Source: a virus (Duplodnaviria; Heunggongvirae; Uroviricota; Caudoviricetes). Taken from it: a stretch of DNA of 4,253 nucleotides. The stretch lies in the IMG/VR virus record IMGVR_UViG_2713896778_000030; one strand, written 5' to 3'. Shown here in pieces: positions 448 to 4,121 of this stretch. How positions within the stretch are numbered: position 1 is the stretch's first letter; each line of letters starts with the position of its first letter. The position numbers and the translations under genes were made by a program. The notes beneath the pieces were generated by a model. That model was not told the origin of the DNA, ran no database searches, and saw nothing but the letters and a program-made list of their open reading frames with translations.

Positions 448-726
448 TTAGGGAAACTGGCGTCTTGCGTGGATCACGTTTACTACTTCAACGCTTGATG
501 TTGTTACGCGGTATAGAATTATATAGTTAGGGTGGGCTACAATCTCACGCAAGCCAGGTACTCTGTCGCTTGGTGGGTATAAATACGGATGTTCGGATAA
601 CGGCAGCACACAACCCCTTAATCGCTGCCATAAGCGTTCAGCCGCATCTATGTCGAAACGAGCAATATAACTAGTTATATCATCTAGGTCGGTATCTGCG
701 CTTTCAAGCCATAACACGGGTAACAT
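448..726 (-). CDS. parE2: ParE-family type II toxin (RelE/ParE fold), 92 aa
   Basis: Minus-strand ORF with ATG at 726-724 and TAA at 450-448. Protein begins MLPVLWLESADTDLDDITSYIARFD and ends VVNVIHARRQFP; length and N-terminal pattern fit ParE toxins. The start is 1 nt after the antitoxin stop (TAA-a-ATG), with a GGAG Shine-Dalgarno (rc of 739-742) inside the antitoxin 3' end. The symbol is recalled from the three-component paaR-paaA-parE systems of E. coli O157:H7; paralog 1 versus 2 cannot be resolved from memory. Confidence 0.75.
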   Translation of the reverse strand: MLPVLWLESADTDLDDITSYIARFDIDAAERLWQRLRGCVLPLSEHPYLYPPSDRVPGLREIVAHPNYIILYRVTTSSVEVVNVIHARRQFP

Positions 727-727
727 T

Positions 728-919
728 TTACTGCTTGCTCCGTTCCTTGCGCATCTTAGCAAAGCGTTCTGCCATTCTGCGCTCAACTTCGTCATGGGGA
801 ATTGCTGGGCGCGGATCTGCAAGGCTCGTTGCTACTTTCGCACGCAGCCATTCGTTGTAACTGTTTTCTTGTTCAATGGTTTCAAATTCAGAAACCATTG
901 GTGAAAGGGCTCTATTCAT
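728..919 (-). CDS. paaA2: Small antitoxin partner of ParE (PaaA-like), 63 aa
   Basis: Minus-strand ORF with ATG 919-917 preceded by GGAGGA (rc of 923-928) and TAA at 730-728. Protein MNRALSPMVSEFETIEQENSYNEWLRAKVA...KMRKERSKQ is highly charged, as expected for a small disordered antitoxin. It sits immediately upstream of and coupled to the ParE gene. The 63-aa length matches my recollection of PaaA2. Confidence 0.65.
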   Translation of the reverse strand: MNRALSPMVSEFETIEQENSYNEWLRAKVATSLADPRPAIPHDEVERRMAERFAKMRKERSKQ

Positions 920-939
920 GTTTCCTCCGGTTTTATAAC

Positions 940-1311
940 TCAGGCGCGGCGGCATTTTTGCGCCGCAATCCATCTCGCTATGAGATCTTCCATTGATTCT
1001 TTTTTCTGCTTTAACTCGCTGATTATCTGGCGTTGCTCATCCTCAGGGAAGGCTGAAAAAATCTGCAATAATTCCAGTTGATTAGACGTTAACCCTGCAT
1101 GTGGTGGAGAAACCCCCGGTTGTTCTGCGTATTCCGCATCCAGATACCCTTCCGGCATCCCGTATGTTTGCTCTATTCTTCTGGCAGCCTTTTCTCCAAA
1201 CGAGGCTCTCCCACTCATTAGTTGAGATAGGTAGCTCTTCTCTTTGGGTGGCAGAGTTTTATCTTTAAACCACTCCTTGAGACGTAAACGGCGAATTTCT
1301 TTTTTTTGCAT
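940..1311 (-). CDS. paaR2: HTH transcriptional regulator (PaaR-like); putative CI-type prophage repressor, 123 aa
   Basis: Minus-strand ORF with ATG 1311-1309 and TGA 942-940. Protein starts MQKKEIRRLRLKEWFKDK and carries an HTH with recognition-helix-like segment KSYLSQLMSGRASFGEKAARRIEQ. It is first in the operon with the antitoxin and toxin and divergent from a cro-like gene. There is no Shine-Dalgarno; a -10-like hexamer sits 6 nt upstream of the ATG. The upstream in-frame ATG at 1374 would lie inside the divergent promoter region. Confidence 0.65.
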   Translation of the reverse strand: MQKKEIRRLRLKEWFKDKTLPPKEKSYLSQLMSGRASFGEKAARRIEQTYGMPEGYLDAEYAEQPGVSPPHAGLTSNQLELLQIFSAFPEDEQRQIISELKQKKESMEDLIARWIAAQKCRRA

Positions 1312-1408: not shown

Positions 1409-1711
1409 ATGACATTAAAAGAGTTTATTAAATCATTAAGGGTTGGTGATGCTAAGAAATTCGCGGCCAGACTTGGTGTATCGCCATCTTACTTATCGCA
1501 AATGGCGTCTGGACGAACAGCTATATCTCCAACCCGCGCCCTTATGATCGAATCTGCGACGGAAGGCCAAGTAAGTAGGGCGGAGCTACGACCTCATGAT
1601 TGGGAGCTTATTTGGCCTGAGTATGCGAGCGGCATTCGTTTGGGGCAAACACATGTAGTTCATGCTGAAGGTGATTGTAGTGCATGCTTATCTGATGGAG
1701 TTGATTCATGA
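1409..1711 (+). CDS. Cro/YdaS-like HTH DNA-binding protein, 100 aa
   Basis: ATG 1409 preceded by AGGAAGG (1401-1407). HTH segment AKKFAARLGVSPSYLSQMASGRTAISPTRALMIESAT resembles the YdaS/Cro family. It is divergent from the repressor gene. The stop TGA 1709-1711 overlaps the next ATG (ATGA). Confidence 0.65.
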   Translation: MTLKEFIKSLRVGDAKKFAARLGVSPSYLSQMASGRTAISPTRALMIESATEGQVSRAELRPHDWELIWPEYASGIRLGQTHVVHAEGDCSACLSDGVDS

Positions 1712-2198
1712 AAATCAAGCATGAACACATCCGCATGGCGATGAATGTCTGGGCGCATCCGGACGGCGAAAAAGTACCGGCTGCGAAAATTACCAAAGCG
1801 TATTTCGAGCNNNNNNNNNNNNNNNNNNNNNNNNNNNNNNNNNNNNNNNNNNNNNNNNNNAAGCGTATTTCGAGCTGGGAATGACGTTCCCGGAACTGTA
1901 TGACGACAGCCATCCGGAAGCCCTGGCCCGTAATACCCAGAAAATTTTCCGTTGGCTGGATAAAGACACCCCTGATGCTGTTGAAAAAATGCAGGCTCTG
2001 TTACCGGCGATCGAAAAGGCGATGCCGCCTTTGCTGGTGGCCCGTATGCGCAGCCACAGTTCTGAATATTACCGTGAGATCGTCGAACGGAGGGAGCGGC
2101 TGGTGAAGGATGTCGATGATTTTGTTGCGTCAGCGGTTGTTTTGTATGACCAGATGAATCGCGGCGGCCCGGCAGGGAATGCTGTGGTGATGCACTAA
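1708..2198 (+). CDS. YdaT-family (CII-like) regulatory protein, interrupted by an N run; about 141 aa once the gap artefact is removed
   Basis: ATG 1708; the N-terminus MKIKHEHIRMAMNVWAHPDGEKVPAAKITKAYFE reads up to the N run. After the N run the sequence (K)AYFELGMTFPELYDDSHPEALARNTQKIFRWLDKD...VVMH continues to TAA 2196-2198 in a frame offset by 2. A 15-mer is duplicated on both sides of the gap. Family assignment is recalled similarity to Rac-prophage YdaT and gene order after the cro-like gene. Confidence 0.6.
1811..1860. other. Assembly or scaffold gap (50 N) with duplicated flanks
   Basis: The 15-mer aagcgtatttcgagc occurs at 1796-1810 and again at 1861-1875. The two flanking reading frames differ by 2, which equals 65 mod 3 (50 N plus one copy of the 15-mer). 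Confidence 0.8.
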
Positions 2199-2220: not shown

Positions 2221-3183
2221 ATGAGCAGCAAGCTTCATGGTCTTGTCTGGGAAGGGTGCGCCTTCACCGGCATGATCTTATCCAGGGTGGCGGTTATGGC
2301 CCGTCTTGCAGACTACAGCAATGACGAGGGCGTGTCATGGCCTGCCATTGAAACTATCCGGCGTCAGATCGGTGCAAGAAGTGAATCCACAGTGAAATCG
2401 GCTATTGCAGAACTGGCGAAAGAGGGCTGGCTGACGAAGGAAGAGCGTAAGGTCGGTGGGCGTAATGTAAGCAATATCTATCGGCTTAATGTGGAAAAAC
2501 TCGAAGCAGCTGCGGCGGCGGCGCGTGAGTCATATAAACCGAAAAGAAAAATTAGCCCGGCAAAAAATGACCCGTTAACAGTTGACCCGTCAAATATTGA
2601 CCCCTCAACGGTTGACCCGTCAAATTTTGATGGATCAACTGTTGATAAAAAACTGCCGATTAGGGGGGCGATGATTGACCCCGATCCGTCAGTATTAAAA
2701 CCTGATCCGTCAGATAAAAGATCTTCTTGTCCGGACGCTTCGCAACCGGACCCGCAGACGGCTGAACAGGATTTTTTAACCCGACACCCTGACGCGGTTG
2801 TGTTCAGTGCGAAAAAACGCCAGTGGGGAAGTCAGGAAGATTTGGTGTGCGCACAGTGGATCTGGGGACGAATCGTGAGTCTTTACGAGCAGGCGGCCAG
2901 CGATGATGGCGAGATCACTAGACCGAAAGAACCCAACTGGACAGCATGGGCCAATGACGTTCGCACAATGCGGATGCTGGATGGCAGAACTCACAGACAA
3001 ATTTGTGAAATGTTTGGGCGTCTCCAGCGGGATTCGTTCTGGGTAAAAAACATCATGAGTCCGGCAAAACTCCGGGAAAAATGGGATGAACTGGTTATCC
3101 GCCTGGGGCGTTCGCCTGCGCAGCGTTGCGTGAATCACATTTCTGAACCGGACACTGAAATACCGCCGGGCTTCAGGGGGTAA
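2221..3183 (+). CDS. Phage replication initiator (O-like), 320 aa
   Basis: ORF 2206-3183 in the supplied track opens at GTG; the preferred start is ATG 2221, 4 nt after GGGGG. The N-terminal region (LSRVAVMARLADYSNDEGVSWPAIETIRRQIGARSESTVKSAIAELAKEGWL) looks like the winged-helix N-domain of phage replication initiators. A central linker has tandem peptide repeats DPLTVDPSNIDPSTVDPSNFDGSTVD encoded by iteron-like DNA repeats. The C-terminal domain is not recognised specifically. Confidence 0.65.
   Translation: MSSKLHGLVWEGCAFTGMILSRVAVMARLADYSNDEGVSWPAIETIRRQIGARSESTVKSAIAELAKEGWLTKEERKVGGRNVSNIYRLNVEKLEAAAAAARESYKPKRKISPAKNDPLTVDPSNIDPSTVDPSNFDGSTVDKKLPIRGAMIDPDPSVLKPDPSDKRSSCPDASQPDPQTAEQDFLTRHPDAVVFSAKKRQWGSQEDLVCAQWIWGRIVSLYEQAASDDGEITRPKEPNWTAWANDVRTMRMLDGRTHRQICEMFGRLQRDSFWVKNIMSPAKLREKWDELVIRLGRSPAQRCVNHISEPDTEIPPGFRG
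2566..2655. repeat. Candidate replication origin: tandem 15-bp iteron-like repeats inside the initiator gene
   Basis: Head-to-tail 15-bp units: aatgacccgttaaca (2566-2580), gttgacccgtcaaat (2581-2595), attgacccctcaacg (2596-2610), gttgacccgtcaaat (2611-2625, identical to unit 2), tttgatggatcaact (2626-2640), then an A-rich unit gttgataaaaaactg (2641-2655). The core TTGAC-CC-GTCAA has inverted-repeat arms. Related copies (tgaccccgatccgtcag, cctgatccgtcag) lie at 2676-2713. Confidence 0.55.
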
Positions 3184-3224
3184 GTGTTAATTTCTGGTCA
3201 TGAGGTAATTTTCAGGAGGGCTTG

Positions 3225-3274
3225 NNNNNNNNNNNNNNNNNNNNNNNNNNNNNNNNNNNNNNNNNNNNNNNNNN
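3225..3274. other. Gap (50 N) removing the 5' end of the following gene
   Basis: AGGAGG (3214-3219) lies 5 nt before the N run, and an open reading frame resumes at the first base after it (3275). No duplicated flank is visible here. Confidence 0.7.
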
Positions 3275-3553
3275 GAGCTGGTTGCCAGTGGCGATGTATA
3301 CAACTCTGGTTACGGGTTATTCCCGTCTGAACAGGCTCGTAAGGACTGGCAAAATGCCCGCAAAAAACTATCTAGGGCAAAGGTGAAGAAACCATCTGTG
3401 GTTGATCCGGATCTTATCTGGTCATTACCAGACGGAGAAATACGCCGCTACGACAGGCGTCTGAACATAATCTGTAGCGAGTGCCGGAAGAGCGAAGCTA
3501 TGCAGCGTGTACTGGCTTTCTATCAGGGTAATTTTCAGAAGGTGCTGTTGTGA
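3275..3553 (+). CDS. Ren-like protein, 3' fragment (start codon inside the N run)
   Basis: Open frame from 3275 to TGA 3551-3553 encoding ELVASGDVYNSGYGLFPSEQARKDWQNARKKLSRAKVKKPSVVDPDLIWSLPDGEIRRYDRRLNIICSECRKSEAMQRVLAFYQGNFQKVLL. The C-terminal motif N-L-[VI]-x-[KS]-E-C-R-x-S-x-A-M-x-R-V-L-A-x-Y matches my recollection of the lambda Ren C-terminus (NLVFKECRQSAAMKRVLAVY). It sits directly downstream of the replication gene, as ren does in lambda. This rests on memory, not a search. Confidence 0.45.
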   Translation, partial: ELVASGDVYNSGYGLFPSEQARKDWQNARKKLSRAKVKKPSVVDPDLIWSLPDGEIRRYDRRLNIICSECRKSEAMQRVLAFYQGNFQKVLL

Positions 3554-3658: not shown

Positions 3659-3871
3659 ATGTTAAATACACAGAAAGCCATTAATGCGGAAAAATATAAC
3701 GAGTGGGCAAGAAAATTCTCTGAGCAGATTTTTAAAATTACTGGCGATGAGAATGCGGCAAAAAATGAATTAGAACCGTGGACGCCTGAAGGAGCCGACC
3801 CAAATTATTGCTGGAGGGAGGTTGATCCAGTTGATGCTGCAAATGAAGCTATGAGTTATCACAACGATTAA
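3659..3871 (+). CDS. Small acidic hypothetical protein, 70 aa
   Basis: ATG 3659 preceded by TGGAGG (3646-3651) with a 7-nt spacer; TAA 3869-3871. Protein MLNTQKAINAEKYNEWARKFSEQIFKITGDENAAKNELEPWTPEGADPNYCWREVDPVDAANEAMSYHND has 14 D/E against 7 K/R, with an acidic C-terminal half. The gene is visibly more AT-rich than the replication genes. No family recognised. Confidence 0.5.
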   Translation: MLNTQKAINAEKYNEWARKFSEQIFKITGDENAAKNELEPWTPEGADPNYCWREVDPVDAANEAMSYHND

Positions 3872-3881
3872 TGTCAGGAGG

Positions 3882-3897
3882 CCGCCCGAAAGGGCGG
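3882..3897. other. GC stem-loop CCGCCC-GAAA-GGGCGG
   Basis: Perfect 6-bp G/C stem with a GAAA tetraloop, 11 nt after the stop of the 70-aa gene. There is no U tract on either strand, so it is not a canonical intrinsic terminator; it may be an RNA stability or processing hairpin. Confidence 0.45.
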
Positions 3898-3983
3898 TAA
3901 TGAATGGTCACATTATTTAGAAAAAATATCCGCGAAAGAGTAGAACAACAGAATTTCTGTTTCTCATTCTGTTTATCGTGTTG

Positions 3984-4121
3984 ATGATACCGATATCCCC
4001 GTTAATCCTAGTCTGGATAATCGGAAAAATAATTGAGCCAGTTATTGAATTGTATAACGACGTGGTATGGGCGTCATTCAACACACTGCACAATAAAATT
4101 AATCCGTATAAGGAAAACTGA
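3984..4121 (+). CDS. Small hydrophobic protein, 45 aa as written; probably the distal part of a ~73-aa membrane protein broken at an A6 tract
   Basis: ATG 3984 to TGA 4119-4121 encodes MIPISPLILVWIIGKIIEPVIELYNDVVWASFNTLHNKINPYKEN. The frame is open upstream to 3921 (KKYPRKSRTTEFLFLILFIVL...) without a start codon. An ATG at 3904 in the +1 frame reads MVTLFRK into the A run 3921-3926. The stop overlaps the next gene start (TGA-t-ATG). No Shine-Dalgarno precedes 3984. Confidence 0.3.
   Translation: MIPISPLILVWIIGKIIEPVIELYNDVVWASFNTLHNKINPYKEN

Follow-up and report, generated by a model that had tools for sequence, protein, structure and literature searches.

Does a run of short tandem repeats inside the gene of a phage replication initiator mark the origin from which the prophage replicates? 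This question was raised by a stretch of Caudoviricetes DNA of 4,253 nucleotides (IMG/VR virus record IMGVR_UViG_2713896778_000030), which is called the window below. The window spanned the part of a Rac-like lambdoid prophage of E. coli that governs immunity and replication, and its O-like initiator gene was 100% identical to that of strain O121 RM8352 (WP_000095671.1) and of further O121 strains. A first reading made from the letters of the window (the sequence-only reading) had proposed that 15-bp repeats in the middle of this gene were the iterons of a candidate origin. An iteron origin inside an O-type gene is a textbook arrangement. Our results led to the same interpretation, in which the repeats are probably the iterons of a prophage replication origin located inside the gene of the initiator that binds them, as in lambda.

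A tandem array of 15-bp units inside the initiator gene

The array consisted of five contiguous units in one reading frame and a degenerate sixth unit (Table 1), and these six units encoded the peptide NDPLT VDPSN IDPST VDPSN FDGST VDKKL. An analysis with Tandem Repeats Finder (TRF) revealed, at 2556-2630, a period of 15 (5.0 copies, 71% matches, score 66) and a period of 30 (2.5 copies, 84% matches, score 101). The motif TGA-N4-TCA occurred four times at an exact spacing of 15 nt (2583, 2598, 2613, and 2628). Shuffled windows with preserved dinucleotide composition contained 1.07 such sites on average, and a cluster of four was found in 0 of 1000 shuffles. The longer palindrome TTGA-N4-TCAA was present at these four places only in 17 kb of the same prophage, where 0.49 occurrences were expected. 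The TRF result, the shuffles, and the uniqueness in 17 kb confirmed the tandem 15-bp repeats inside the O-like gene; the array is real, and chance is excluded.

Several details of the sequence-only reading also held, namely the identity of the units at 2581-2595 and 2611-2625, which was evident from the unit sequences, and the A-rich unit followed by more diverged copies up to 2713. The 5-bp inverted arms (TTGAC/GTCAA) ascribed to the unit were found in two units only. The core of the family was not a palindrome with 5-bp arms; its arms were TGA/TCA, extended to TTGA/TCAA in the subfamily of the window.

The palindrome, not the peptide, is conserved among relatives

A comparison with the repeats of related prophages, which had been suggested as a check, was made with 19 genes extracted from relatives of the N-terminal domain (N-domain) with 52-77% identity. 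These came from E. coli genomes, from Mixta, Edwardsiella, and Erwinia genomes, and from 44 phage records, from which a diverse set of 12 was fetched (among them SfII, phiNP, YeP1, phiP27, and several Klebsiella phages). A scan of genome contigs with the N-domain gave at least three loci, and a scan of viral contigs gave 80 loci with a 100% identical N-domain, which carried no information on divergence and were used only for neighbouring genes and unit counts. An array with a 15-bp period and 3-7 units was located directly after the N-domain in 19 of the 19 relatives. The hosts of these relatives were Escherichia, Shigella, Klebsiella, Citrobacter, Yersinia, Mixta, Edwardsiella, and Erwinia, and the viable phages SfII and phiNP were included. 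Typical units were TCTGACCCGTCAAAA, TCTGACACGTCAAAA, ATTGACCCCCCAACG, and GTTGAGGGGTCAACC, and the last unit of the array in the relatives was an equivalent ...GA/GG-AAAAAA... unit.

The motif TGA-N4-TCA was nearly invariant across the relatives, including two third-codon positions. Among 58 distinct units, positions 3 and 12, both third codon positions, had information contents of 1.71 and 1.42 bits, compared with 0.37 and 0.43 bits at positions 1 and 2. The first codon of the unit specified nine amino acids, yet ended in T in 55 of 58 codons. The serine at codon 4 was encoded by TCA (67/76) or TCG (9/76), whereas TCA accounted for 49 of the 362 serine codons (13.5%) elsewhere in the same genes. 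In all, 47 distinct pentapeptides were specified by the 58 units. Moreover, some units were inverted: GTTGAGGGGTCAACC was the reverse complement of GGTTGACCCCTCAAC, and TTGAGGGGTCAA and TTGACCCCTCAA formed another exact reverse-complement pair, so that the DPS and EGS peptides correspond to the same DNA site in opposite orientations. Because the third-codon positions were conserved and the serine codon was fixed as TCA or TCG while the pentapeptides varied and units were inverted, the comparison indicates that selection acts on the DNA palindrome TGA-N4-TCA and that the peptide, which belongs to a predicted disordered linker, is simply carried along. The linker had been thought to be constrained at both the DNA and the protein level. 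The 19 relatives upheld the DNA part, whereas the protein part was not sustained, given the variety of pentapeptides and the predicted disorder.

The super-period of the array also differed, being 30 bp (two units) in the window and 45 bp (three units, one of them inverted) in Edwardsiella ictaluri, which hints at a higher-order organisation of bound initiators. A remnant of the family was observed in the cryptic prophage CPS-53 of K-12, where the yfdO pseudogene (locus 1924-2631) had lost the N-terminal DNA-binding domain and kept the array with four TCTGAC..TCAAAA units, the GATC block described below, and the C-terminal domain (C-domain).

The initiator is a mosaic O protein

The initiator gene began with ATG 2221 in RefSeq and with GTG 2206 in the mechanical list of open reading frames. 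The protein matched PHROG 391, "replication initiation O-like", at 2.2e-115. The only Pfam matches at E <= 0.01 were HTH_36 over residues 25-71 (2.1e-6) and a sub-threshold DnaD_N, and the model of the N-terminal family of lambda O gave no match at this threshold. A family alignment (A1) compared with lambda O using hhalign showed a probability of 99.6%, an E-value of 1e-24, and 41% identity between residues 181-299 of the initiator and residues 170-276 of lambda O, a span that comprised the C-domains only. The earlier assignment of the host gene as a replication initiator was thus supported by both the PHROG match and the homology of the C-domain to lambda O. Since only the C-domains aligned with lambda O, these alignments indicate that the initiator is a mosaic O in which a C-domain of the lambda type is combined with an N-terminal DNA-binding domain of another kind.

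In the AlphaFold2 (AF2) model, which was built on 76 homologues, the N-domain contained helices at residues 3-16, 20-31, 43-50, 55-67, and 91-104 and a β-hairpin wing at residues 71-89, with pLDDT of about 72-86. Foldseek gave weak matches (E 2e-3 to 2e-2) of this model to DnaD and to the winged-helix dimers ArsR, MarR, and PadR, which would identify a generic winged-helix fold only. All the repeats fell in the DNA encoding the predicted disordered linker, and the model showed a helical C-domain at residues 178-295, after which the tail was floppy.

Among the relatives, the N-domain and the array were joined to at least four unrelated C-domains, and the domain junction was located just past a conserved "...DPSDK..SCP" block. 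Conversely, the phage HannyBb carried the C-domain found in the window together with an N-domain that was unrelated, and its repeats at the equivalent place were five units of a different, 23-bp type. In these comparisons the type of repeat covaries with the N-domain and is independent of the C-domain, which indicates that origin specificity (N-domain plus iterons) moves as a single unit, the classical lambdoid pattern. Lambda, P22, and L have been reported to carry distinct iterons, each within its O or 18 gene (PMC8022706). The number of units was also variable, and near-identical E. coli alleles differed by whole units, with 2, 3, 4, and 5 units giving proteins of 305, 310, 315, and 320 aa. 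In Stx phages, additional iterons lengthen O by extra residues (PMC7466680).

AT content, GATC block and hairpin around the array

The AT content of the gene peaked over 30-40 bp within 2622-2661, which included the sixth unit and reached 77% AT over 30 bp; the segment 2689-2728, which holds the second and third GATC elements (Table 1), was 68% AT. In a duplex-stability scan, the least stable segments of the region were intergenic and did not coincide with the array, and the modest minima inside the gene flanked it.

To the right of the array, the context GATCCGTCAG was kept 40-70 nt past the array in 18 of the 19 relatives. In the family, this block consisted of two or three copies of GATCC(G/A)TCAG(T/A)A, spaced 12-24 bp apart and located about 40-70 nt beyond the array. 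Of the 19 genes, 18 had at least two of these GATC sites, and three genes had no others. The spacing in the window was 21 and 16 bp. These elements resembled right half-iterons (CCGTCA). As a speculation, the GATC sites could be targets of Dam/SeqA or part of the unwinding region. In many relatives, a Dam-type methylase was encoded no more than one or two genes downstream of O.

As single-stranded DNA, 2577-2643 folded into an imperfect hairpin (dG -16.9 kcal/mol, z = -5.3) with arms of 33 nt that were 79% complementary, and 0 of 200 shuffles were as stable. Such a hairpin arises automatically from a run of palindromic units. Additionally, the window contained 11 DnaA boxes (TTWTNCACA, at most one mismatch), against 9.06 expected, a number reached by 63 of 200 shuffles, and no cluster of boxes was found at the array. 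A DnaA-dependent (oriC-like) origin was rejected because these boxes were not enriched. No promoter or terminator was predicted inside the initiator gene, and the lack of a predicted internal promoter left no sign of an oop- or pO-like element.

The array as a probable origin and the alternatives

The interpretation of the array within the initiator gene as an origin was supported by the O homology, the position of the array, the selection at the DNA level, and the co-inheritance with the N-domain. The parallel with lambda, whose ori had been said to lie inside gene O in the same way, was close: the array occupied nt 346-435 of the 963-nt gene, and the annotated lambda iterons occupy nt 349-433 of 900. 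Several observations weighed against the interpretation. None of the fetched phage records annotated an origin at this place, whereas the lambda record did. The centre-to-centre spacing of 15 bp was tight for winged-helix dimers, and the AT-rich element was weak, with 70% AT in the best 40 bp (2622-2661) versus 80% in lambda. In this prophage, O was followed not by a P or DnaC-like loader gene but by a DUF977/Ren-like gene, and an IS66 insertion was present, so that the prophage is possibly defective. Finally, the 19 arrays shared their descent and one reading frame, and the units were therefore not independent samples, so that the codon statistics overstate the significance in a strict sense. 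Despite the shared ancestry, the inverted codon-position pattern is hard to explain by other means.

It is also conceivable, though unlikely, that the repeats are sites at which the initiator controls its own expression or copy number (for example by a transcriptional roadblock in its own gene, or by handcuffing or titration), with replication starting elsewhere in the element. The conservation of the DNA and its covariation with the N-domain show a binding site and not firing, the array has no strong AT-rich unwinding element beside it, and the iterons of plasmid replicons serve initiation as well as control. However, the array matched the proven lambda ori in its place within the gene and was followed by the coding region of a homologous C-domain; the sister module of HannyBb had iterons and an adjacent AT-rich repeat in the same place; and no second cluster of motifs was found in 17 kb of the early region of the prophage. 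The chances appear somewhat poorer still for an array that is a by-product of a flexible DPS-type pentapeptide linker grown by replication slippage, with no separate function for the DNA. Although the period was in frame and a multiple of three, the region encoded a predicted disordered linker, and the unit number differed among alleles as slippage would give, this explanation met the 47 pentapeptides in 58 units with conserved third-codon T3 and A12, the restriction of serine to TCA and TCG, and the reverse-complement units with unrelated residues (DPS versus EGS). Slippage alone would not preserve a palindromic core across genera with N-domains of only 52-77% identity.

The selected feature might instead be a secondary structure, either a cruciform in the DNA or a hairpin in the mRNA that regulates translation of the initiator, and this we regard as very improbable. 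The stable hairpin at 2577-2643 spoke for it, but such a fold is automatic for runs of palindromic units, as has also been noted for lambda-type iterons (PMC7466680). Additionally, the unit number ranged from 2 to about 8 and the super-periods differed (30 bp here and 45 bp in Edwardsiella), so that no specific fold was conserved.

A model for initiation and helicase loading

If the array is an iteron origin, dimers of the N-domain would bind the palindromic units TTGA-N4-TCAA or, in an alternative register, the junction palindromes TCAA-N3-TTGA; either register is possible for the dimer site because TTGA and TCAA half-sites alternate along the array. With a site spacing of 15 bp, neighbouring dimers would be on nearly opposite faces of the helix, and these alternating dimers could assemble into a compact complex resembling the O-some and so distort the DNA on its flanks. 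The strands would probably open in the modestly AT-rich region 2641-2725, which contained A-tracts and two to three conserved GATC sites, possible control points for Dam/SeqA. The lambda-O-type C-domain and the DnaT-like C-terminal tail would then bring in DnaB with a DnaC-type loader.

The tail was the only part of the initiator, 21 residues long, that matched in a sequence search of the Protein Data Bank (PDB). The hits of the tail in phmmer were 2ru8_A, 6aep_A, and 9zbt_D (DnaT 159-179), with E-values of 0.01-0.03, and the tail corresponded to positions 159-179 of the NCBIfam DnaT model. Relatives with unrelated C-domains likewise ended in ..P.GFRG/S/T. DnaT is thought to recruit DnaB/DnaC (PMC13377028), and its C-terminal motif is also present in the O-like protein DopC (PMC5509034). 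By this resemblance, it is plausible that the tail recruits a DnaC-type loader, and the tail may be the source of "primosomal protein I" annotations. In this prophage the loader would come from the host, since O is not followed by a loader gene, whereas many relatives would use a DnaC-like protein encoded by the phage itself. The gene next to O was DnaC-like in 51 and DUF977 directly in 25 of the 76 viral contigs that had an identical N-domain and a complete or nearly complete initiator gene. The isolated phages SfII and HannyBb were likewise without a loader gene adjoining O.

A bolder possibility, which we consider doubtful, is that these features together constitute a distinct lambda-derived replicon design with a tight 15-bp filament, GATC control, and a DnaT-mimicking tail. 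In such a design, dimers on alternating faces would give a tight filament and not the wrapped O-some of the lambda type, and the conserved GATC pair or trio (Dam/SeqA) would replace a long AT tract in opening and in the control of re-initiation, which would fit the phage Dam methylase gene often found a few genes downstream. The tail would recruit the host DnaB-DnaC directly, making a phage P or DnaC gene dispensable.

Genomic context and prevalence

The coordinates of the array, the domains, and the neighbouring genes are listed in Table 1. A three-gene toxin-antitoxin module of the paaR2-paaA2-parE2 type (448-1311, minus strand) occupied the usual place of the lambdoid cI repressor and was divergent from the ydaS/ydaT-like genes. 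The window contained two 50-base runs of N, at 1811-1860 and 3225-3274. The first was bordered by a 15-nt duplication, AAGCGTATTTCGAGC, and because of this N run and the duplication the YdaT-like gene was 65 nt longer than in the closed genome (491 versus 426 nt). The second took the place of some 143 nt that contain the start of the DUF977 gene. Both runs are artefacts of scaffolding or masking, not biology.

Table 1. Coordinates of the features described in the text. Positions are those of the window unless another record is named.
Feature	Position	Strand	Sequence or evidence
Putative iteron units, five contiguous, in frame, 15 bp each	2566-2640		TRF, shuffle test, 17-kb uniqueness, family conservation
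Unit 1	start 2566		AATGACCCGTTAACA
Unit 2	start 2581		GTTGACCCGTCAAAT
Unit 3	start 2596		ATTGACCCCTCAACG
Unit 4	start 2611		GTTGACCCGTCAAAT, identical to unit at 2581-2595
Unit 5	start 2626		TTTGATGGATCAACT
Degenerate sixth unit	2641-2655		GTTGATAAAAAACTG, left half-site and A-tract
12-bp palindromes TTGA-N4-TCAA	2582-2593, 2597-2608, 2612-2623, 2627-2638		
Diverged unit merged with first conserved GATC element	2674-2692		ATTGACCCCGATCCGTCAG
Diverged copy	2701-2713		CCTGATCCGTCAG
First GATC element	GATC at 2683		within ATTGACCCCGATCCGTCAG
Second and third GATC elements	2701-2724, GATC at 2704 and 2720		CCTGATCCGTCAGATAAAAGATCT
N-terminal winged-helix domain, aa 1-104	2221-2532	+	AF2, HTH_36, Foldseek; presumed iteron reader
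Predicted disordered linker, aa 107-171	2539-2733	+	AF2 pLDDT < 50
Lambda-O-type C-terminal domain, aa 178-298	2752-3114	+	hhalign; helical in AF2 model
C-terminal tail, aa 300-320	3118-3180	+	AQRCVNHISEPDTEIPPGFRG, resembles extreme C-terminus of E. coli DnaT
parE-type toxin	448-750	-	ParE_toxin 2.5e-16
PaaA2-type antitoxin	728-919	-	PaaA2 1e-19
PaaR2-like regulator	940-1311	-	PHROG 5736 match
YdaS/Cro-like regulator	1409-1711	+	
YdaT/CII-like protein	1708-2198	+	run of N interrupts gene
O-like replication initiator, 320 aa	2221-3183	+	PHROG 391, HTH_36
DUF977/Ren-like gene	downstream of initiator, within 3184-3553		next gene after O
DUF977/Ren-like gene in the closed genome	9019-9441		
Edwardsiella ictaluri array	3355-3444 of its locus		compared with 2566-2640 of the window

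Of 5426 complete E. coli genomes, 3265 contained a match to part of the initiator gene, and in 1514 of these the match covered at least 80% of it. Relatives were found in the Shigella serotype-converting phages SfII and SfIV, in the Stx phages phiP27 and Stx2_KH16-043, and in Klebsiella, Citrobacter, and Yersinia phages. The gene was labelled in RefSeq only as a "helix-turn-helix domain-containing protein", and phage annotators already name its homologues "replication protein O". A full-text literature search for the motif strings returned only unrelated primers and similar matches. Iterons or origins were not discussed in a paper on the replication regions ("Eru") of Stx phages, and the word "iterons" was absent from the Shigella phage genome papers surfaced by the literature search. 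A contiguous, in-frame 15-bp TGA-N4-TCA iteron type of the HTH_36 family was not found described in the full-text search, nor were the conserved GATC block and the P-less arrangement with a DnaT-like tail. A putative origin of this kind is widespread, cleanly supported by the comparative data, and unsurprising to a specialist.

The iteron consensus and the predicted position of the origin permit origins to be annotated in this prophage family, replication specificity or incompatibility between co-resident prophages to be predicted, and replication-defective or recoded variants to be designed. The array further illustrates overlapping constraints in a clean form, with a code of DNA-binding sites written through a predicted disordered linker.

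Comparison with known replication systems

As in lambda, the putative origin was located within the initiator gene, in the DNA for the linker between a DNA-binding N-domain and a C-domain; the iterons had internal dyad symmetry, the C-domains were homologous (E 1e-24), and the gene was in the early-right operon after cro/cII-like genes. Lambda ori consists of four 18-19-bp iterons and an AT-rich tract and forms an O-some. The lambda iterons are spaced 20-24 bp apart in three frames, whereas the units here were 15 bp, contiguous, and in frame, and the core was TGA-N4-TCA rather than the ATCCCTC...GAGGGA of lambda. The AT-rich element was weaker here over 40 bp (70% versus 80%), no P gene came next, and the initiator had a DnaT-like tail, which is missing from lambda O. 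The N-domain belonged to HTH_36 and did not match the lambda-O N-terminal model at E <= 0.01; a distant relationship of lambda O to HTH_36 was reported using HHpred (PMC5509034) and was not reproduced in this analysis.

Gene 18 of P22 contains four repeats of about 20 bp in its coding region, and gene 18 of phage L contains six imprecise 11-bp repeats, TGTCCAACGGA (PMC8022706). Like these distantly related origin-binding proteins, the initiator of the window had its own type of repeat inside the coding region, but the sequences and lengths of the repeats and the initiator families differed. For phage L, as here, the role as an origin was inferred from the sequence only.

The O genes of HannyBb, mEp460_ev081, and PhiR42_1 had a C-domain and DnaT-like tail that were 86% identical at the DNA level to those of the window. 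In HannyBb, the only one of the three whose neighbours were inspected, the Ren-like/DUF977 gene was again next, with no loader gene between. Its N-domain, by contrast, was unrelated, and its O-like gene contained, at 3846-4002 of the record, five 23-bp direct repeats, CATCGGTTCAAAATG..., spaced 23, 23, 23, and 24, followed by three AT-rich 12-bp repeats, ACAGAGAATACA. Since 23 bp is not a multiple of three, these repeats cannot all share one frame. The arrangement resembles a lambda-like origin with a different specificity, joined to the C-domain type of the window protein.

DopC is a domesticated chromosomal O-like protein of Cellvibrionales and Oceanospirillales that is paired with the P-like DopE (PMC5509034). 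Described as lambda-O-like, it shares the HTH_36 N-domain and the DnaT C-terminal motif with the initiator here, but its authors found no iteron-like repeats in dopC (PMC5509034), whereas the window carried putative iterons. The Rac prophage, for which an active origin, oriJ, has been reported (PMC3945230), has the same gene order in ydaS-ydaT-ydaU-ydaV: repressor, YdaS-like, YdaT-like, and initiator genes, followed in the relatives by DnaC-like and DUF977 genes. Rac oriJ was rejected as experimental support, since YdaU is a DUF1376 protein and not HTH_36, and the oriJ data therefore do not transfer to the initiator family here. The middle of ydaU in K-12 Rac (locus 2972-3063) contained four copies of AAGCAGATGTTCAA with spacings of 33, 33, and 12, which are candidate oriJ iterons.

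In iteron plasmids, winged-helix Rep proteins (RepA, π) are paired with tandem iterons of 17-22 bp, which are not part of the rep gene and usually recur about every two helical turns. The initiator of the window resembled these systems in combining a winged-helix fold, as predicted by the model, with a tandem array, and differed from them in that its units were intragenic and 15 bp apart.

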